Part shown: in pieces, positions 1 through 32,891 of the stretch
How positions within the stretch are numbered: the first letter of the stretch is position 1
Layout of the letters: every line of letters begins with the position of its first letter
DNA from: Actinomycetota bacterium
Lineage (GTDB): Bacteria > Actinomycetota > Thermoleophilia > Gaiellales > F1-60-MAGs149
Reading direction: 5' to 3'
Length of the DNA: 64,000 nucleotides
Assembly (NCBI GenBank): GCA_016870485.1
Contig: VGBM01000005.1
Coordinates: forward strand, 24,214-88,213
The notes under the pieces: generated by a model
Database searches by the model: none
Seen by the model: the letters and a program-made list of their open reading frames with translations, nothing else
Told to the model about the DNA's origin: nothing
Made by a program: the position numbers and the translations under genes

Positions 1-567
1 ATGGCTGAGCAGGTCTCCACCAACCAGTTCAAGAACGGCATGCACATCGACGTGGACGGGACGATCTACCGGATCGTCGAGTTCCAGCACGTCAAGCCCG
101 GCAAGGGCGGCGCCTTCGTGCGCACCAAGTTGAAGGCGTTTGAGACGGGCGCCGTCGTCGACCGGACGTTCCGGGCGGGGGAGAAGTTCCCGCGCATCCT
201 CACCAGCGTCGCCGACATGCAGTTCCTCTACGACGACGGCACCGACGTCGTGATGATGAACACGGAGACCTACGAGCAGCTGTCGCTCAAGCGCGAGTCC
301 TGCGCGGACGAGCTGCGCTGGCTCAAGGAGGGCGACACCGTCCAGCTCCTGAGCGTGGACGACGTGCCGGCGACGCTGCAGCTGCCCGCCTCCGTCGAGC
401 TGGCCGTCCTGCAGACCGAGCCGGGCATCAAGGGCGACACGGTCTCGAACGTGACGAAGCCCGCCACCCTCGAGACCGGCGCCGTCGTGCAGGTGCCGCT
501 GTTCGTCAACGAGGGCGACGTGGTCAAGGTTGACACCCGCGAGGGCACCTACATTTCGCGCGCCTAG
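1..567 (+). CDS. efp: Elongation factor P
   Basis: 188-aa ORF with ATG at window position 1. MAEQVSTNQFKNGM...VEFQHVKPGKGGAFVRTKLK (KPGKG loop). Classic efp-accB-accC neighbourhood. Confidence 0.95.
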   Translation: MAEQVSTNQFKNGMHIDVDGTIYRIVEFQHVKPGKGGAFVRTKLKAFETGAVVDRTFRAGEKFPRILTSVADMQFLYDDGTDVVMMNTETYEQLSLKRESCADELRWLKEGDTVQLLSVDDVPATLQLPASVELAVLQTEPGIKGDTVSNVTKPATLETGAVVQVPLFVNEGDVVKVDTREGTYISRA

Positions 568-604: not shown

Positions 605-2371
605 ATGGCGCGCCTCGTCGACACCTCCCTGCGCCTGCTCGCGCAGGAGCCCCTCGCCGGGCGCGTCCCGGCGTCGCTCGAGCTCGAGGCCTGCGAGCGC
701 CTCGACGAGGCCGGCTTCCACGTGCTCGAGGTGTCGGGGGGCGGCTGCTTCCACGCCGCCGTCCAGCGCGGCACGGAGAGTCCGTGGGAGCGGATCCGCA
801 ACCTCAAGCGCCGCGCGCAGCGCACCCCGCTCGGGATGGCGCTGCGCGGCCGCTTCCTGGTCGGCACGCAGCCGGTCGAGCAGGACCTGATCCGGCGCTT
901 CGTCGACTGCGCGTCCGAGTCGGGCATCGTGGTGTTCCGGATGCACGACCCGATGAACGACCCGGAGGACCTCGTCGGCCCCGCCGAGGCGGTTCGCGAG
1001 GCCGGCGCCCGCCTGCACCTCGGGCTCGTCTACGACGAGGGCCCGGCGGGCCACGAGCGGCTGCTCGCCCGCGCGCCCGAGCTGGCCGCGCTCGGCGCCG
1101 ACCGGCTGCTCCTGCTCGACCCCGCGGGCGCGCTCGACCCCTCGCAGGTCGGCGCGCTGATCACGGGCCTGCGCGACGCGGCGGGCGTGCCCGTCGGCCT
1201 CTACCCGCAGGGCCCCGGCGGCACGTCGCTGTCCGTCGCCCTCGAGGCGGCGCGGGCCGGGGCCGACCCGATCAGCGTCGCCGCGTACCCCCTTGCCGTG
1301 GCCGGCCACCGCGCGAGCTCCGAGCTGCTCAGCCAGGCGATCGACGGGCTCGGGCTCGAGTCCGGGGTGGGGCAGGGCGTCCTCTGGGAGGTCGCTGAGC
1401 TGCTCGACCGCGCGCTCTTCGCCGATCCCACGCTGCCGCCGCCTCTCTCCGCGCACGTCTCGCTGCAGGCGGCCCTGAAGGGCGTGCCCGCCGGGCTCGT
1501 CGCCAACGTCGAGCGCCGCCTCGCCGCGATCGACGCCTCCGACCGCCTCGCCGAGGTGCTCGACGAGATCCAGCGCGTGCGCGAGGATCTCGGCTCGCCG
1601 CCGACCGCCTCGCCGCTCGGTGACGTGATCGTGCGCCAGGCCATCGACCACGTCCTCGAAGGGCGCCGCTGGCACTACGCCGACGCCGAAATGGGCGCCG
1701 TCATCCGCGGCGAGTGGGGCCATCCGCCGCTCACCGTCGACGCCGCGGTGGCCGAGCTCGGCCGCGCCGCGGCCGAGGAGCCGCCCGCGCCCGCCGACCT
1801 CGATGCGGCCCGCGTGGAGGCCGGCTCGCGCGCCACCTCCGAGGAGGAGCTGTGCCTCGTGGCGCTCTTCGGCGCGGGTGCGCTGCCCCTGCTCGAGCGC
1901 CTGCGCGGCCGCCACGAGGCGATCGCGTCAGGCGTCACCAACGAGGAGGAGGACCGCATCCGCGTCCTCGTCGACCTGCTCGAGGAGACGGGCCTCGGCG
2001 AGCTCACGGTCGAGGAGAACGGCACCCGCATCACGCTGCGCCAGCAGGCGCCGGTGCAGCAGGTCGTGCCGGTCGCGCCCGTGGCCGCCGCCCCCGCGGA
2101 GGCCGCCGCGCCGGCCGCTCCCGCGGGCGACGTGATCGCCAGCCCGATGGTGGGCACCTTCTACCGCTCGTCGGCGCCGGGCGAGCCCGCGTTCGTCGAG
2201 GAGGGCCAGCGCGTCGAGGTCGGCCAGGTGCTCTGCATCCTCGAGGCGATGAAGCTCTTCAACGAGTTCAAGTCCGAGACGGCCGGCACCATCCGCCGGA
2301 TCCTCATCGAGGACGCCCAGCCCGTCGAGTTCGGGCAGCCGCTGTTCGAGATCGACCCCAGCGGGGCCTGA
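605..2371 (+). CDS. OadA / transcarboxylase-5S-like carboxyltransferase domain (predicted inactive metal site) fused to a C-terminal biotin carboxyl carrier domain
   Basis: 588 aa from ATG 605 (the track ORF starts at 530). The N-terminal ~450 aa follow the OadA/PycB fold pattern (ESPWERI, ALRGRFLVG, FRMHDPMND, and a PYC_OADA-like PTASPLGDVIVRQA). The C-terminus is a biotinyl domain (VLCILEAMKLFNEF). It occupies the accB slot, 7 nt upstream of accC. Confidence 0.8.
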   Translation: MARLVDTSLRLLAQEPLAGRVPASLELEACERLDEAGFHVLEVSGGGCFHAAVQRGTESPWERIRNLKRRAQRTPLGMALRGRFLVGTQPVEQDLIRRFVDCASESGIVVFRMHDPMNDPEDLVGPAEAVREAGARLHLGLVYDEGPAGHERLLARAPELAALGADRLLLLDPAGALDPSQVGALITGLRDAAGVPVGLYPQGPGGTSLSVALEAARAGADPISVAAYPLAVAGHRASSELLSQAIDGLGLESGVGQGVLWEVAELLDRALFADPTLPPPLSAHVSLQAALKGVPAGLVANVERRLAAIDASDRLAEVLDEIQRVREDLGSPPTASPLGDVIVRQAIDHVLEGRRWHYADAEMGAVIRGEWGHPPLTVDAAVAELGRAAAEEPPAPADLDAARVEAGSRATSEEELCLVALFGAGALPLLERLRGRHEAIASGVTNEEEDRIRVLVDLLEETGLGELTVEENGTRITLRQQAPVQQVVPVAPVAAAPAEAAAPAAPAGDVIASPMVGTFYRSSAPGEPAFVEEGQRVEVGQVLCILEAMKLFNEFKSETAGTIRRILIEDAQPVEFGQPLFEIDPSGA

Positions 2372-2378
2372 GGCCGCG

Positions 2379-3740
2379 GTGCTGCGCCGCTGCCTCGTCG
2401 CGAACCGGGGCGAGATCGCCGTCCGGATCATCCGCGCCTGCCGTGAGCTCGGGATCGGGGCGGTCGCCGTCCACTCGACCGCGGACCGGGACGCCATGCA
2501 CGTGCGCATAGCCGACCAGTCCGTGCAGATCGGGCCGCCGCAGGCCTCCGAGTCGTACCTGCGCGTCGACCGCCTGATCGCGGCCGCGCAGACGACGGGC
2601 TGCGACGCGGTGCACCCGGGCTACGGGTTCCTCGCGGAGAGCACCGACCTCGTGCGGGCCTGCGCCGAGCACGACCTGGTCTGGGTCGGCCCGTCGGCGG
2701 AGGCGATCGAGACGATGGGCGACAAGGCCGTCGCCAAGGACACGATGCGTGCCGCCGGGCTGCCGCTCGTGCCGGGCTCGGGCGGGCGCCTGTCGGGCCC
2801 CGACGAGGCCGCCACGGTGGCCGAGGAGGCCGGCTACCCCGTGCTGCTCAAGGCCGCCGCGGGCGGCGGCGGCAAGGGCATGCGGCTCGTGCGCGACCCG
2901 GCCGACGTGCGCGACGCCTTCCTCGCCGCGAGCACCGAGGCGGAGGCGGCCTTCGGCGACGCCGGCATGTATCTCGAGAAGGCCGTGGTCGATGCGCACC
3001 ACATCGAGATCCAGGTGCTCGGCGACGGGCGCGGCGGCGGCCTCGTCCTCGGCGAGCGCGAGTGCTCGATCCAGCGCCGCCACCAGAAGCTGATCGAGGA
3101 GTCGCCGTCGCCCTTCCTCGCGCCGGAGACCCTGGTCACGATGGAGGCCGCGGCGGCCGACGCGCTCCAGGCCCTCGCGTACGCGGGCGCGGGCACGATC
3201 GAGTTCCTGGTCGGCGCGGACCAGGCGTTCTACTTCATGGAGATGAACACGCGCCTCCAGGTCGAGCACCCCGTCACCGAGGAGGTGACGGGCTTCGACC
3301 TCGTGCAGGCGCAGCTGGCGGTCGCCGGCGGCGACGGCGTGCCCCCGTGGGACCCGTCCGGGCGGCGCGGGCACGCGATCGAGTTCCGGATCAACGCGGA
3401 GGACCCGCGGCACGGCTTCCGGCCGGGGCCGGGCCTGATCACGCGCTTCCGCCCGCCGCTCGGGCCGGGCATCCGCATCGACACGTTCGTGGAGGACGGC
3501 GCGACCGTGCCGCCCTTCTACGACTCGATGATCGCGAAGCTGATCGTGACCGCGCCGAACCGGGCAAGGGCGCTCGACCGCGCGGCGCGGGCCCTCGACG
3601 AGTTCGTGGTCGAGGGTATCCCGACCACGATCCCGCTCCTGCGCGAGATCGTGGACGAGCCCTCGTTCCGGGCCGGCCGCTACACGACGACGTACCTCGA
3701 CGAGGTCGGCGACGCGCTCACGAGCCTCGGGGAGGGCTGA
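2379..3740 (+). CDS. accC: Biotin carboxylase
   Basis: 453 aa, GTG start. LVANRGEIAVRIIRA, GYPVLLKAAAGGGGKGMR, MEMNTRLQVEHPVTE. Confidence 0.95.
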   Translation: MLRRCLVANRGEIAVRIIRACRELGIGAVAVHSTADRDAMHVRIADQSVQIGPPQASESYLRVDRLIAAAQTTGCDAVHPGYGFLAESTDLVRACAEHDLVWVGPSAEAIETMGDKAVAKDTMRAAGLPLVPGSGGRLSGPDEAATVAEEAGYPVLLKAAAGGGGKGMRLVRDPADVRDAFLAASTEAEAAFGDAGMYLEKAVVDAHHIEIQVLGDGRGGGLVLGERECSIQRRHQKLIEESPSPFLAPETLVTMEAAAADALQALAYAGAGTIEFLVGADQAFYFMEMNTRLQVEHPVTEEVTGFDLVQAQLAVAGGDGVPPWDPSGRRGHAIEFRINAEDPRHGFRPGPGLITRFRPPLGPGIRIDTFVEDGATVPPFYDSMIAKLIVTAPNRARALDRAARALDEFVVEGIPTTIPLLREIVDEPSFRAGRYTTTYLDEVGDALTSLGEG

Positions 3741-3741
3741 C

Positions 3742-4167
3742 GTGGCGGACGCGGCGGGGGACGACGGCTCGCGCCGGCAGGCGCGCCGCGCGGCGGTGCT
3801 CCTGCTCTACCAGGAGGACCTGACCGGGCACCCGATGGCGGACATCGTCGCGCGCCACGAGACCGACGCCGGGCGCCCCCTGCCCGCGTACGCGGGCGGG
3901 CTGATCGCGGCCGTGCACGCGCGCCGGGACGCCCTCGACGGGGAGATCGACGACCTCGCGGAGGGCTGGAGCGTGGAGCGGATCGCGCCCGTCGAGCGCG
4001 CCGTCCTGCGCGTCGGGCTGGTCGAGCTCGACGCGGACGATCCGCCGGCCGCGGTGGCGATCGCGGAGGCCGTCGCCCTGGCCGGCCGCTACGCCTCGCC
4101 GGAGGCCGCGACGTTCGTGAACGGGATCCTCGGCGCGGCCGCGCGCAGGCGCGGCACGGGCCGGTAA
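3742..4167 (+). CDS. nusB: Transcription antitermination factor NusB
   Basis: 141 aa. RRQARRAAVLLLYQEDL, AVLRVGLVEL, FVNGILG. GTG start 1 nt after the accC stop, preceded by GGGGAGGG. Confidence 0.85.
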   Translation: MADAAGDDGSRRQARRAAVLLLYQEDLTGHPMADIVARHETDAGRPLPAYAGGLIAAVHARRDALDGEIDDLAEGWSVERIAPVERAVLRVGLVELDADDPPAAVAIAEAVALAGRYASPEAATFVNGILGAAARRRGTGR

Positions 4168-4176
4168 CCTCCCGGC

Positions 4177-4380
4177 ATGGACGAGGCCGATCCCTTCGAC
4201 GAGCTGGTCGCCCGGCTGGAGGCCGCGCGCGCCCGGCTCGACGCGGTCGCGGGCCCCGACGAGGCCGTGCAGGCGCTCGAGGAGCTGCAGGAGACCGCCC
4301 GGGAGATCGCGGCCGAGGTCGACCGCCGGCGCCGCGCGCTGGCCGACGAGCGCGGCGATGGGCAGCTCGACCTCCTCTGA
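4177..4380 (+). CDS. Possible exodeoxyribonuclease VII small subunit (XseB-like)
   Basis: 67-aa acidic helical ORF in the xseB slot directly upstream of the polyprenyl synthase gene. Weak match to the XseB N-terminal pattern (PFDELVARLEAARARLD). No xseA is nearby. Confidence 0.4.
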   Translation: MDEADPFDELVARLEAARARLDAVAGPDEAVQALEELQETAREIAAEVDRRRRALADERGDGQLDLL

Positions 4381-5248
4381 GCACCTCGCCCGCCTCGCGG
4401 GCCTGGTCGAGGCCGAGCTCGACGCGCGCGTCGGCGCGCTGATCGGGGCCGAGCCGGACCTCGCGCCGTTTGCGGCCGCGCTGCGCCACCCGCTCGACGC
4501 CGGCGGCAAGCGCCTGCGGCCCGTGCTCCTCCTCGCGACCCTCGAGGCGCTCGGCCGCGACCTCGCGCCGGGCCTCGCGAGCGCCTGCGCCCTCGAGCTG
4601 ATCCACACCTTCTCGCTGGTGCACGACGACCTGCCCGCGCTCGACGACGACGACCTGCGCCGCGGCCGGCCGACCACGCACGTGGCGTACGGCGAGGACG
4701 TCGCGATCCTCGTCGGCGACGGGCTCTTCGCGCTCGCCTTCCGGCTGATCGCGGAGGACCCGCTGCCGGACCCGGCGGCGCGCCTCGGCGCCGTCGCCGA
4801 GCTCGCCCGCGCGACGGACGGGATGGTGCGGGGCCAGTACCTCGACCTGCACCCGGTGCCCGACCCGGACGAGGCCGCCGTGGCCCGCATGAGCGGGCTC
4901 AAGACGGGCTGCCTGATCGAGGCCGGCATCGGGATGGGCCTCGTCCTCGCCGACGCCGATCCGGACGCACAGGCCGCCTACCGGGCGCTCGGCCGCGAGC
5001 TCGGGGTCGGCTTCCAGATCGTCGACGACGTCCTCGACGCCACGGGCACGAGCGCCGAGCTCGGCAAGACGGCCGGGGCCGACGTGGCCAACGACCGCCG
5101 CACGTTCGTGACGGTGCTCGGGCTCGAGGCGGCGCGCGCGCGGGCCGAGGCCTCGTGGGCGCGGGCCGCGGCCCTGCTCGACGGGCTCCCGGGCGACCCG
5201 GCGGCGCTGCGGGAGGCGGCCGCCCTGATCTACCGGCGGACGCGCTGA
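4358..5248 (+). CDS. Polyprenyl diphosphate synthase (FPP/GGPP synthase, IspA-like)
   Basis: 296 aa. First Asp-rich motif LVHDDLPALDDDDLRRGRPT and second FQIVDDVLD. Overlaps the upstream small ORF by 23 nt. Confidence 0.9.
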   Translation: MGSSTSSEHLARLAGLVEAELDARVGALIGAEPDLAPFAAALRHPLDAGGKRLRPVLLLATLEALGRDLAPGLASACALELIHTFSLVHDDLPALDDDDLRRGRPTTHVAYGEDVAILVGDGLFALAFRLIAEDPLPDPAARLGAVAELARATDGMVRGQYLDLHPVPDPDEAAVARMSGLKTGCLIEAGIGMGLVLADADPDAQAAYRALGRELGVGFQIVDDVLDATGTSAELGKTAGADVANDRRTFVTVLGLEAARARAEASWARAAALLDGLPGDPAALREAAALIYRRTR

Positions 5249-5250
5249 CG

Positions 5251-6051
5251 GTGGCCCGCGAGCGCCTCGACCAGGCGCTGGTGGCGCAGGGCCTCGCGCC
5301 GACCCGCTCGAAGGCCCAGGCGCTCGTCCTCGCCGGGCTCGTCACCGTCGACGGCGCGCCGGCGCGGACGGCCGGGCAGCCCGTGCGCGACGGGCAGGCC
5401 CTCGCCGTCCTCGCCACCCAGCGCTTCGTCTCGCGCGCCGGCGACAAGCTCGACGGCTTCCTCGCCGCCCTCGGCTGGGACGTGGCCGGGGCCGACGTCC
5501 TCGACGTGGGGGCCTCCACGGGCGGCTTCACGGACTGTCTGCTCCAGCGCGGCGCCGCCCGCGCGGTCTGCGTCGACGTCGGCTACGGCCAGCTCGACCC
5601 GCGCCTGCGTGGCGACCCACGCGTGACGGTGATGGAGCGCACGAACGCCCGCGGGCTGACTCCCGACGCCCTGCCGTACGCGCCCGACCTGCTCGTCGCC
5701 GACGTCTCGTTCGTCTCGCTGCGGCACGTGCTCGGGTCCGCGCTCGCCTGCCTGCGCGCGCCGTGGCGGGCCGTGGTGCTGGTCAAGCCCCAGTTCGAGG
5801 CCCAGCCGGCCGACGTCGGCAAGGGCGGCGTCGTGCGCGACCCCGTGATCCGCCGGCGCGCGATCGCCTCAGTCGCCCGCTACGCTTGCGACCTCGGCGC
5901 GATTCCGCTCGTCGCCCGCGACTCGGGGCTACCGGGTCCCGCCGGCAACCACGAGTATCCCATGGCCATCGTCTCCGCCGACCACCCACTCGCCCCCGCG
6001 GGGCGGCCCGATCCCGAGCGCATCGCCGAGGAGGCGGTCGCCGATGGCTGA
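5251..6051 (+). CDS. tlyA: TlyA-family rRNA 2'-O-methyltransferase (hemolysin A-like)
   Basis: GTG 5251, 2 nt after the upstream stop. S4 domain (RLDQALVAQGLAPTRSKAQALVLAGLVTVDG) plus FtsJ-like methyltransferase (FVSRAGDKLDGFL, DVGASTGGFTDCLL). Confidence 0.85.
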   Translation: MARERLDQALVAQGLAPTRSKAQALVLAGLVTVDGAPARTAGQPVRDGQALAVLATQRFVSRAGDKLDGFLAALGWDVAGADVLDVGASTGGFTDCLLQRGAARAVCVDVGYGQLDPRLRGDPRVTVMERTNARGLTPDALPYAPDLLVADVSFVSLRHVLGSALACLRAPWRAVVLVKPQFEAQPADVGKGGVVRDPVIRRRAIASVARYACDLGAIPLVARDSGLPGPAGNHEYPMAIVSADHPLAPAGRPDPERIAEEAVADG

Positions 6052-30215: not shown

Positions 30216-32891
30216 ATGGCTTCCGTTGACCGGGCCACGGCCCCCACGTACGTCTACGACCAGTCCGAGGGCTCCGCCGAGATGCGGGGCCTGCTCGGCG
30301 GCAAGGGCGCCAACGTCGCCGAGATGCAGCGCATCGGCGTGCCCGTGCCTGACGGCTTCACGGTCACGACCGAGGCCTGCGTCGCCGCGATGGACGCGGA
30401 CGGGGCGTGGCCCGACGGGCTCTGGGAGGCCGTCCTCGACCGCCTCGCCGCGCTCGAGAAGCGGACGGGGCGCCGGCTCGGCGACCCCGAACGGCCGCTC
30501 CTCGTGAGCGTGCGCTCCGGCGCCGTCTTCTCGATGCCGGGGATGATGGACACGATCCTCAACCTCGGGATCAACGACGCCGCCGTCCGCGGCCTCGCCG
30601 CCGAGTCGGGCAACCCGCGCTTCGCCTGGGACTCGTACCGGCGCTTCGTGCAGATGTTCGGGGAGGTCGTGCTGGGCGTGCCGTCCGACGACTTCGAGCA
30701 CGCCCTCTCGCAGCTCAAGCGCGAGCGCGGCGTGGCGCTCGACACCGACCTGACGGCCGAGGACCTCGAGGGCCTCGTCGCCATGTTCAAGCGGATCACC
30801 GAGGAGTCGGCGGGGGCGGGCGCGTTCGGCGACGACCCGCGCGAGCAGCTGCGCCTCGCGATCAACGCGGTCTTCGCGTCCTGGCAGAACCCGCGCGCCG
30901 CCGTCTACCGGCGCGCCAACGACATCCCCGACGAACTCGGCACCGCCGTCAACATCATGCAGATGGTGTTCGGCAATCTCGGCGAGACCTCGGGCACGGG
31001 CGTCTGCTTCACCCGTAACCCCGCCACCGGCGCCAAGGAGCTGTACGGCGAGTTCCTCGTCAACGCCCAGGGCGAGGACGTCGTCGCCGGCATCCGCACC
31101 CCGCGGCCTATCGCCGAGATGGAGGCCGCGCTGCCCGAGGCCTACCACGAGCTGGTGGCCACGATGGCGCGGCTCGAGGCGCACTACGGCGACATGCAGG
31201 ACATCGAGTTCACGGTCGAGCAGGGCCGCCTGTACCTCCTGCAGACCCGCACCGGCAAGCGCACCGCGCAGGCCGCCGTGCGCGTCGCCTGCGAGTTGGT
31301 CGCCGAGGGCGTGATCACCCGCGACCAGGCCGTCCAGCGGATCGACCCCCGCCAGCTCGACCAGCTCCTGCATCCGACGATCGACCCCGACGCGCCCCGC
31401 GACCTGCTCGCGACGGGTCTCAACGCCTCGCCCGGCGCGGGCGTGGGGGAGGTCGTGCTCGACGCCGACACGGCCGAGCGGCGCGGCAAAGCCGGCACCC
31501 CGGTGATCCTCGTGCGCTGGGAGACGACGCCCGACGACATCCACGGCGTGATCGTGGCCCAGGGCGTGATCACGGCCCACGGCGGCATGACGTCGCACGC
31601 GGCGGTCGTGGCGCGCGGGATGGGCAAGCCCTGCGTGGCGGGCGTCGACGGCCTGCAGATCGACCGCGAGGCGCGCACCATCGCGATCGGCGGGCGCGTC
31701 CTGCGGGAGGGCGACACGATCACGATGGACGGCTCGACCGGCGAGGTGCTGGCCGGCGGGTCGCCGCTCGTGCCGCCGCGCTTCGACGACCACTTTCGGG
31801 AGATCACCGCCTGGGCGGACGAGATCCGGCGGCTGCGGGTGCGCGCGAACGCCGACACGCCGGAGGACGCCGAGCGCGCCCGCGGCTTCGGGGCGGAGGG
31901 CATCGGGCTGTGCCGCACCGAGCACATGTTCATGAGCGAGGAGCGACTGCCGAGCGTACGCCGCATGATTCTCGCCAGCGACGAGGCGGACCGCCTCGCC
32001 GCCCTCGCCGAGATCGCGCCGATGCAGCAGGGCGACTTCGAGGGGATCCTGCGGGCGATGGACGGGCTCCCCGTCACGATCCGCCTGCTCGACCCGCCGC
32101 TGCACGAGTTCCTGCCGAGCCTGCTCGAGGCCTCCCGCGACGTGGAGCGCATCCGCGGGCACGGCGCCCCCGGCGACCTCGTCGCCGCCGAGGCGCTGCT
32201 TGCCCGCGTCAAGGAGCTGACCGAGGCCAACCCGATGCTGGGGACCCGCGGCTGCCGGCTCGGGCTGCTCTTCCCCGAGATCTACACGATGCAGGCCCGC
32301 GCGATCGTCGACGCGGCGCTCGCGGTCCGCGCCGCGGGCGGCGACCCGCGCCCCGAGATCATGATCCCGCTGGTCGGGTTCGCGGAGGAGCTGCGGCGGA
32401 TGCGCATCCTGGTCGAGGAGGTGGTGCGCGAGGAGACCGAGCGGGCCGGCGTCGACTTCCCGATCCAGGTGGGCACGATGATCGAGCTGCCGCGTGCGGC
32501 GGTCGTCGCCGACCAGATCGCCACCGAGGCCGACTTCTTCTCGTTCGGCACGAACGATCTCACGCAGACCGTGCTCGGGCTGTCGCGCGATGACGCGGAG
32601 GGCAAGTTCCTGACCCAGTACCTCGAGGACGGCGTGATCGATAAGAACCCGTTCCAGACGATCGACGTCGACGGGGTCGGCGCGGTCGTGCGGATGGGCT
32701 GCGAGCAGGGCCGCGCCGTCAAGCCCGACCTCAAGCTCGGGGTCTGCGGCGAGCACGGCGGCGACCCCCTCAGCGTCGGCTTCTTCCACGACGTCGGCGT
32801 CGACTACGTCTCCTGCTCGCCCTTCCGGGTGCCGATCGCGCGCCTCGCGGCCGCGCAGGCCGCGCTCGGCGCCTCCTTCAAGGACCGCTAG
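30216..32891 (+). CDS. ppdK: Pyruvate, phosphate dikinase
   Basis: 891 aa. GGKGANVAEM, phospho-His region GGMTSHAAVVARGMGKPCV, FFSFGTNDLTQ. Confidence 0.96.
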   Translation: MASVDRATAPTYVYDQSEGSAEMRGLLGGKGANVAEMQRIGVPVPDGFTVTTEACVAAMDADGAWPDGLWEAVLDRLAALEKRTGRRLGDPERPLLVSVRSGAVFSMPGMMDTILNLGINDAAVRGLAAESGNPRFAWDSYRRFVQMFGEVVLGVPSDDFEHALSQLKRERGVALDTDLTAEDLEGLVAMFKRITEESAGAGAFGDDPREQLRLAINAVFASWQNPRAAVYRRANDIPDELGTAVNIMQMVFGNLGETSGTGVCFTRNPATGAKELYGEFLVNAQGEDVVAGIRTPRPIAEMEAALPEAYHELVATMARLEAHYGDMQDIEFTVEQGRLYLLQTRTGKRTAQAAVRVACELVAEGVITRDQAVQRIDPRQLDQLLHPTIDPDAPRDLLATGLNASPGAGVGEVVLDADTAERRGKAGTPVILVRWETTPDDIHGVIVAQGVITAHGGMTSHAAVVARGMGKPCVAGVDGLQIDREARTIAIGGRVLREGDTITMDGSTGEVLAGGSPLVPPRFDDHFREITAWADEIRRLRVRANADTPEDAERARGFGAEGIGLCRTEHMFMSEERLPSVRRMILASDEADRLAALAEIAPMQQGDFEGILRAMDGLPVTIRLLDPPLHEFLPSLLEASRDVERIRGHGAPGDLVAAEALLARVKELTEANPMLGTRGCRLGLLFPEIYTMQARAIVDAALAVRAAGGDPRPEIMIPLVGFAEELRRMRILVEEVVREETERAGVDFPIQVGTMIELPRAAVVADQIATEADFFSFGTNDLTQTVLGLSRDDAEGKFLTQYLEDGVIDKNPFQTIDVDGVGAVVRMGCEQGRAVKPDLKLGVCGEHGGDPLSVGFFHDVGVDYVSCSPFRVPIARLAAAQAALGASFKDR

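Follow-up and report, generated by a model that had tools for sequence, protein, structure and literature searches.

What becomes of a carboxyltransferase once the residues that hold its catalytic metal are gone? The question is posed by a gene near the start of a 64,000-nucleotide stretch of contig VGBM01000005.1 (assembly GCA_016870485.1, positions 24,214 to 88,213 of the forward strand) from an actinomycetotal bacterium of the order Gaiellales; this whole stretch is called the window below, and positions are counted from its first nucleotide. In the slot where other lineages encode AccB, the biotin carboxyl carrier protein (BCCP) of acetyl-CoA carboxylase (ACC), the window carries a fusion gene (605..2371 on the + strand, including the stop codon) whose 588-residue product joins a pyruvate-type carboxyltransferase (CT) domain, stripped of its metal ligands, to an AccB-like C terminus. 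An earlier note, written from the DNA alone, had placed a single 588-residue open reading frame (ORF) between efp and accC and had held that the BCCP adjoining accC is not an AccB of about 160 residues. ORF calls and the Pfam identities of the neighbouring genes bear this out, and the extra length is an N-terminal domain of 440 residues.

The gene model rests on the ORF call and on matches to the PRK09282 and TIGR00531 models. The + strand ORF could start at 530 (TTG) or at 605 (ATG) and ends at 2371; we place the start at ATG 605, giving 588 residues, because the homologues open with MARLVDT or MTRLVDT. Its GC content at third codon positions (GC3) is 95%, similar to that of the neighbouring genes, and a protein 100% identical to the product (P0001) is present on 13 contigs.

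Metal site and carrier domain of the fusion protein

Residues 1-440 form a CT domain of the kind found in PycB, OadA and transcarboxylase 5S, as the earlier note had proposed for the first ~450 residues. The N-terminal 400 residues were aligned by phmmer with the solved structures of the two-subunit pyruvate carboxylase (PC) beta subunit (5ks8, 1.6e-53), OadA (2nx9, 8e-49) and transcarboxylase 5S (1rqb, 9e-42). Together with the AlphaFold2 (AF2) model and Foldseek, these alignments assign residues 1-270 (605..1414, + strand) to a TIM barrel of the DRE-TIM or HMGL-like CT fold. The helical C-terminal 'conserved carboxylase' domain PF02436 follows at residues 283-436 (1451..1912, + strand), delimited by its Pfam match (residues 293-430, 1e-11), the alignment of the catalytic loop and the regional conservation. 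Profile scores mark how far the domain has moved from its working relatives: the HMGL-like barrel model PF00682 reaches 20 bits, under its cut-off of 29; the NCBIfam PycB model PRK09282 aligns end to end with 322 bits, under its cut-off of 402; and the OadA model TIGR01108 scores 279 bits against a cut-off of 756, the NCBIfam matches to OadA and 5S models falling far under their cut-offs. Among the three Pfam models by which the earlier note had proposed to check the architecture, PF02436 and PF00364 thus match, and PF00682 stays below its threshold.

By the structure prediction, the CT fold, barrel and PF02436 domain alike, is intact in the fusion. The AF2 model has a mean predicted local distance difference test score (pLDDT) of 85.2, and its barrel is regular, with strand and helix alternating at a pLDDT of about 90 or higher. 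Foldseek superposes the model on 1rqb and 2nx9 with template modelling (TM) scores of 0.84-0.87 at a root-mean-square deviation of ~3 A, and matches it to 5ks8 with an E-value of 3.5e-38.

The catalytic site was mapped through the phmmer alignments to 5ks8, 2nx9 and 1rqb and cross-checked by counting 2nx9 numbering. All four metal ligands are replaced: on the + strand, Asp17 of 2nx9 is Leu11 here (635-637), the carbamylated Lys178 is Leu171 (1115-1117), His207 is Tyr200 (1202-1204) and His209 is Gln202 (1208-1210). The catalytic Thr/Ser of the GGM(I/L)(S/T)N loop has likewise become Ala300 (1502-1504, + strand), and the loop reads VPAGLVAN. Alignment to the three structures thus confirms the loss of all four ligands that the earlier note had read from the sequence; its statement that the R-D-x-H part of the N-terminal block is lost holds for the Asp and the His (and for the Ser that follows), and fails for the Arg, which is kept as Arg10. 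Also retained are Gln14 and Arg81. All three residues are invariant in the family, and we take them to be the pyruvate-binding positions of pyruvate carboxylase (Arg548, Gln552 and Arg621 in the Rhizobium etli enzyme).

The replacements belong to the whole family. In the best 120 of 4,607 homologues, the Asp position holds Leu in nearly all, and R-(L/I)-L at this position and (Y/F)-x-Q in place of His-x-His occur in 120 of 120; the Gln of the latter motif is invariant in an alignment of 37 sequences. Several replaced positions have themselves become near-invariant (Leu12, Pro16, His114, Pro116, Tyr/Phe200 and Gln202). Position 171, by comparison, may hold L, H, N, Q, M, S, A or D, and the catalytic loop, P-G-G-M-x-(T/S)-N in active enzymes, is variable across the family. 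Could the ligands have been re-created elsewhere in the pocket? The alignments of homologues show no conserved alternative set of Asp, His or Cys. The candidates considered for a replacement site were the family-specific Cys48, His114 and the His found at 171 in many members; they were rejected, as Cys48 is Val in Gaiellaceae and 171 varies. Ligands conserved at shifted positions, which the earlier note had named as a finding that would refute it, are thus not borne out by the alignments.

We know of no DRE-TIM metallolyase that does without its metal. The N-terminal domain is therefore predicted to be incapable of pyruvate-type carboxyl transfer, so that it would neither make nor split oxaloacetate. 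The description of the domain as a pseudo-enzyme, already given in the earlier note, gains support from the combined loss of the ligands, of the Thr/Ser and of ~30 other positions that active relatives keep invariant.

The C-terminal part presents the opposite picture. The earlier note had seen an ordinary biotinyl domain with its EAMK motif; this domain is there, yet it is only one portion of what reads as a full-length AccB with its N-terminal module. Residues 447-480 (EDRIRVLVDLLEETGLGELTVEENGTRITLRQ; 1943..2044, + strand) correspond to that module in alignments with TIGR00531, with the E. coli AccB chain 4hr7_B and with canonical AccB proteins, and are predicted by homology to be the AccB module that binds biotin carboxylase (BC). 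A Pro/Ala-rich flexible linker follows (residues 481-507; 2045..2125, + strand), of varying length in the alignment and with a pLDDT of <50 over residues 482-505. The biotinyl domain itself occupies residues 508-585 (2126..2359, + strand; PF00364 over residues 510-583, 2e-20) and contains, judged by motif position, both the AccB-type thumb TFYRSSAPGEPAF at residues 518-530 and the biotinylation motif EAMK at residues 547-550, with Lys550 encoded at nt 2252-2254 (+ strand).

The likeness to AccB runs over nearly the whole chain. The AccB equivalog TIGR00531 aligns from model position 5 to 155 of 156 with residues 451-584 and, at 133 bits, exceeds its cut-off of 115.2; positions 24-175 of 4hr7_B match residues 450-583 (5e-28); and canonical AccB proteins of ~150 residues from efp-accB-accC loci align to residues 446-588 with 43-51% identity. 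The E. coli BCCP structure 1bdo scores 84.6 bits (6.5e-23) against the C terminus, where the BCCP of the PycB structure 5ks8 reaches just 12.7 bits. Taken together, the N-terminal module, the Pro/Ala linker, the thumb and the EAMK motif identify residues 447-588 as a complete AccB.

Locus, family and selection

The fusion gene lies in the block efp / accB slot / accC / nusB, in which all genes are on the + strand. Upstream is efp (1..567; Pfam EFP_N, EFP and Elong-fact-P_C, and synteny); 7 nt separate the stop codon of the fusion from the start of accC (2379..3740), which encodes a biotin carboxylase of 453 residues (PF00289, PF02786 and PF02785; PRK08591 with 616 bits against a cut-off of 597). 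The downstream flank is nusB (3742..4167; PF01029 at 6e-23, and synteny), and beyond accC the order is nusB, xseB, ispA and a tlyA-like gene. Some of these ORFs overlap: xseB overlaps ispA by 23 nt, and the longest ORFs of ispA (4358-5248, +) and of the tlyA-like methyltransferase gene (5155-6051, +) share 94 nt; the real start of the latter probably lies further downstream.

The same order, efp / fusion / accC / nusB, is found in all Gaiellales loci compared, and accC lies directly downstream in all related loci that reach beyond the fusion gene and show an accC match. A word-index search with the fusion protein returned the 4,607 matches, of which the best 120 are all of ~590 residues, with 48-100% identity, come from independent assemblies and, where named, belong to metagenome-assembled genomes (MAGs) of Gaiellales, Thermoleophilia or Actinobacteria. 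A Gaiellaceae query gave 6,433 matches at E <= 1e-50 among 8,000 candidates scored, mostly from soil metagenomes; these homologues are metagenome and MAG sequences only, with no Gaiella occulta entry among the matches listed. Representative genomes in GTDB that carry the family are assigned to Gaiellales, Gaiellaceae, Thermoleophilia and unclassified Actinomycetota MAGs, and the order efp / fusion / accC / nusB holds in each case.

How strongly is a domain without catalytic residues held in place? Identity to the fusion spans 41-100% across the loci. In the alignment of 37 sequences, 100 columns are invariant, and 70 of these fall within the CT part (residues 1-440). Ratios of nonsynonymous to synonymous substitution rates (dN/dS) between the window and locus L001 are 0.23 for the CT part, 0.24 for the AccB part, 0.22 for accC and 0.24 for efp, and between the window and L002 they are 0.13, 0.21, 0.11 and 0.12, respectively; as a GC3 of 95-98% depresses dS, these values are used only between genes of one genome pair. 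The domain is thus under purifying selection like that on its neighbours. Over 78 pairs, the CT part diverges 1.1-1.25 times as much as AccC, a ratio that is ~1.0 in the clade of active enzymes.

The constraint is unevenly distributed. Conservation relative to the active clade is reduced over residues 271-360, which hold the catalytic loop (0.57-0.73), and in barrel strands 5-8 (0.85), unchanged in strands 1-4 (0.96), and raised in the helices of residues 410-436 (1.22) and in the AccB N-terminal module (1.31). Within the CT part, 70 positions keep one and the same residue in the two clades, a further 24 have exchanged one conserved residue for another, and 30 have lost the invariance that they show in active enzymes. 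This pattern, with a relaxed loop and raised constraint on residues 410-436 and the N-terminal module, suggests that catalysis was lost and a structural job kept; the strongest constraint adjoins the AccB part expected to contact AccC.

Two irregularities within the family should be recorded. The fusion gene is frameshifted in L021, L033 and L040, all nanopore MAGs of the MFD series, with intact neighbours; the likeliest cause is indel error of long-read sequencing in DNA of 70-75% GC, and not decay into pseudogenes. In Gaiellaceae, the 986-residue protein P0350 runs on from the fusion into the biotin carboxylase domains PF00289 and PF02786; either a genuine triple fusion or a lost stop codon or assembly error could explain it.

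Intact and degenerate relatives

The earlier note had met the fusion in one genome. Mapped across phyla, it is Gaiellales-wide, and CT-AccB fusions elsewhere include both intact forms and other dead lineages. Fusions with intact residues occupy the accB slot in loci L024-L032, L034 and L035, from Coriobacteriia, Peptococcaceae, Syntrophomonas, Thermincola, Desulfitobacterium and Desulfosporosinus; by source, the intact-looking fusions come from a Coriobacteriaceae genome (L025), an Actinomycetota MAG (L026), Bacillota (L027-L035) and a Bacteroidales MAG (L038). They retain DTTLRD(A/G)HQS, KDMAG, HxHxH and PGGM(I/T)SN, share the architecture, the junction and the AccB-type BCCP of the window protein, and are 30-34% identical to it in the CT part. 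On these motifs they are probably catalytically competent, and in such organisms pyruvate carboxylase and ACC may draw on a single BC and a single carrier. We found no published description of these intact fusions.

Their genomic setting again points to AccB. In Desulfosporosinus fructosivorans (L029:9959-11890), the order is spoIIIAE-AH / fusion / accC / asp23 / asp23 / nusB, a position that we take to be that of accB in Bacillus subtilis, and a nusB match also lies downstream in several other intact-fusion loci. The loci L043-L080, from Nitrospiraceae, Staphylococcus and others, carry a canonical accB of 150 codons in the same slot. The fusion in the Bacteroidales MAG (L038:826-4514), with intact ligands, forms an operon of the order accD-accA-[CT-AccB fusion], and P0184 (L085:4155-7986, GCA_964589825.1), with Lys replaced by Asn and a degenerate catalytic loop, also follows directly after accD-accA. 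These two positions, directly downstream of accD-accA, tie the fusion type to acetyl-CoA carboxylase.

Loss of the metal site is not unique to Gaiellales. An exhaustive search of representative genomes with residues 1-440 gave 2,338 matches; 42 of the best 150 hold the full Asp/Lys/His/His set, and several further degenerate lineages appeared, most with the AccB-type thumb. One has a ligand pattern of S-K-D/N-D, with the motifs DLSLRSLGKI and IEVNIDNAGG (P0178, at L083:6001-7860, and P0229, P0231, P0245 and P0250); the context of P0178 is aroC-aroK-aroB-aroQ-pepP-efp / fusion / accC / asp23. A second, a divergent dead form represented by Actinomycetes bacterium Ww508 (L037:2262-3998) with P0237 and P0249, keeps the ligand Asp (VDTTLRDLATPP), but the Lys, both His, Gln14 and Arg81 are gone. 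The Q-x-P-G-G motif is common to this form and the Gaiellales family, and its gene lies in the order efp / fusion / accC / nusB. Partly degenerate proteins, with Lys replaced by Met or Asn in P0167 and P0192, occur in Bacillota (P0167 from a MAG, L081:6001-9244, and P0170, both with Met; a biotin carboxylase gene follows that of P0167) and in Hydrogenedentota (P0192, at L084:6001-7797 without carboxylase neighbours, and P0235).

The degenerate ligand site also turns up in CT-BCCP proteins whose BCCP lacks the thumb (P0191, P0193, P0220, P0253, P0183, P0201 and P0214, the first five with a BCCP of the LEAMKMQND type), so that dead CT domains of the pyruvate type occur outside AccB fusions as well. 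In a rough neighbour-joining tree of the CT domains, the three most degenerate lineages group together, a grouping to which long-branch attraction may contribute.

A module probably kept for assembly, and the competing explanations

What, then, does the gene encode? Its product is read as a carrier subunit because its C-terminal part has the hallmarks of AccB and the gene sits in the accB slot. We consider it rather probable that the gene is the AccB of a multi-subunit acetyl-CoA (or acyl-CoA) carboxylase, with an inactivated pyruvate-type CT domain kept at its N terminus as a structural or assembly module. Lys550 would be biotinylated and its biotin carboxylated by the adjacent AccC; the swinging BCCP domain would then pass the carboxyl group to a separate CT, either AccA/AccD or a beta subunit of the PF01039 type, encoded elsewhere. 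The pseudo-CT would most likely serve as a platform for dimerisation or assembly, on which the AccB N-terminal module and AccC are kept together. An ACC role in this organism, such a partner CT and the scaffold function are each plausible. Such a protein could have arisen by fusion of a pycB-like CT to accB, giving a bifunctional PycB-AccB hub of the form still seen in Bacillota and Coriobacteriia; the Gaiellales would then have lost the pyruvate reaction after the domain had already become necessary for assembly.

Several observations weigh against this account. Pfam found no accA, accD or PF01039 match among the window's ten largest confident ORFs, and tblastn with accD and accA from L085 finds neither in the whole window nor within 10 kb of the Gaiellales fusions; across the window and all loci, such matches occur in L085 and L038 only. 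The AF2 model is of low confidence in the C-terminal stretch between the CT domain and the AccB module. Conservation in the first half of the barrel equals that of active enzymes, and the invariance of Arg10, Gln14 and Arg81 exceeds the obvious needs of a pure scaffold, so that a ligand could still bind.

The last two points would be accounted for if the barrel were a non-catalytic sensor for pyruvate, oxaloacetate or another 2-oxo acid, bound by way of Arg10, Gln14 and Arg81, and thereby matched the BC-BCCP half-reaction of ACC to conditions in central carbon metabolism. The near-invariance of several replaced positions (Leu12, Pro16, His114, Pro116, Tyr/Phe200 and Gln202) and a dN/dS equal to that of accC fit this idea as well. 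We nevertheless regard it as unlikely: Gln14 and Arg81 are not kept in the dead lineage of L037 and P0237, so the Arg-Gln-Arg trio is no general requirement of dead CT-AccB proteins, and both position 171 and the loop that closes the pocket (residues 292-301) vary freely.

The same trio, the similarity to the PycB and OadA models over the full length, and the biotin carboxylase gene next door, as in pycA/pycB pairs, might instead suggest that the protein still works, as the beta subunit of a two-subunit pyruvate carboxylase or the alpha subunit of oxaloacetate decarboxylase, through other residues or without metal. This is very improbable. The protein scores under every curated PycB, OadA and 5S cut-off, the residues now at the ligand and Thr/Ser positions are unable to coordinate a metal or transfer a proton, and no other Asp, His or Cys set is conserved in their stead. 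The neighbouring AccC lacks the Ala-rich C-terminal helix that helps to form the BT-like domain of the bacterial two-subunit enzyme (PMC5059739), and a Pfam search of the scanned flanking genes and the ten large window ORFs gave no oadB or oadG match.

That the fusion is a functionless remnant being lost, or two genes joined by an assembly or frameshift error, as the earlier note had allowed, is suggested by its missing catalytic residues and by the frameshifted copies in some nanopore MAGs (L021, L033 and L040), and is refuted as far as computation can: the single ORF is seen again in thousands of sequences produced by independent projects, conserved across the order over 41-100% identity, under purifying selection equal to that on accC and efp (dN/dS of the CT part 0.13-0.23), and with its invariant columns and confidently predicted fold, which leaves this explanation hardly any probability.

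The AccB-with-assembly-module reading invites a wider and more speculative proposal. CT-AccB fusions may constitute a widespread, undescribed class of carboxylase hub, whose intact form in Bacillota, Coriobacteriia and Bacteroidales serves both pyruvate and acetyl-CoA carboxylation, and whose pyruvate site, in four or more lineages besides Gaiellales, would have been turned repeatedly and independently into an indispensable non-catalytic module, either the architectural core of an ACC holoenzyme of a new type or a 2-oxo-acid sensor coupling fatty-acid synthesis to anaplerosis. We put this forward tentatively and would not yet bet on it.

Consequences for annotation and comparison with known systems

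The names under which the family is deposited conflict, ranging from oxaloacetate decarboxylase (Na+ extruding) subunit alpha and 2-oxoglutarate carboxylase large subunit to AccB, biotin/lipoyl-containing protein and hypothetical protein. Metabolic reconstructions almost certainly err if they give the protein the role of a sodium-pumping decarboxylase or of a pyruvate carboxylase, and as Gaiellales are among the most abundant Actinomycetota of soil and freshwater, annotation and metabolic models are affected. The window also holds a pyruvate phosphate dikinase gene (30216-32891, +; PF01326, PF00391 and PF02896), which is relevant to the node of pyruvate and phosphoenolpyruvate if the organism lacks a pyruvate carboxylase of the PycB-fusion type.

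Beyond annotation, one genomic slot provides a series from canonical AccB through intact CT-AccB and dead CT-AccB to no accBC at all, the last presumably being the state of classical Actinomycetes between efp and nusB. Such a series is a rare chance to follow the change of a catalytic domain into a permanent structural component of a different enzyme. If the pseudo-CT dimerises like CT domains, the BC-BCCP core of this ACC would differ from that of E. coli.

Finally, we would like to set the fusion beside the systems that it resembles. Literature searches for pycB/accB fusions, for pseudoenzymes among carboxyltransferases and DRE-TIM proteins, and for the ACC of Gaiella gave no description of the protein; a study of Patulibacteraceae mentions only an indel in AccC (PMC6544083). 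With AccB of E. coli (TIGR00531; 4hr7 and 1bdo), it shares the N-terminal module, the Pro/Ala linker, the thumb and EAMK, a score above the curated cut-off, and a gene upstream of accC in the efp...nusB block; unlike canonical AccB, which has 150-170 residues and no CT-fold domain, it carries 440 additional N-terminal residues.

PycB (Methylobacillus flagellatus, 5ks8; PMC5059739), OadA (2nx9) and 5S (1rqb) are its best matches in sequence and fold. They too consist of a CT fold, barrel plus PF02436, followed by a BCCP, and pycB is likewise paired with a biotin carboxylase gene; they differ from the fusion protein in that all of its metal ligands and the catalytic Thr/Ser are replaced and its scores lie under their cut-offs, and its BCCP, unlike that of PycB, is of the AccB type with a thumb. 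In the M. flagellatus type of two-subunit PC (alpha2beta4), the BT-like domain is built from an Ala-rich C-terminal helix of the ~471-residue alpha subunit and from beta-sheets of the beta subunit between CT and BCCP (PMC5059739). The AccC of the window, in contrast, has 453 residues, matches AccC models as far as their position 444 of 451 and ends ...YLDEVGDALTSLGEG without the Ala-rich helix, and in the fusion protein the stretch that links CT and BCCP is formed by the AccB N-terminal module in place of a BT-like sheet.

The nearest precedent in spirit comes from plants, where BADC proteins are non-biotinylated BCCP-like subunits of the heteromeric ACCase (PMC12706156). In both cases, a dead member of a family of carboxylase components is retained in an ACC system. 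In BADC, however, the dead part is the carrier, a separate polypeptide with a regulatory role, whereas the Gaiellales protein has a carrier that looks functional, and what is dead is the CT domain fused to it, which belongs to a different carboxylase, of the pyruvate type.

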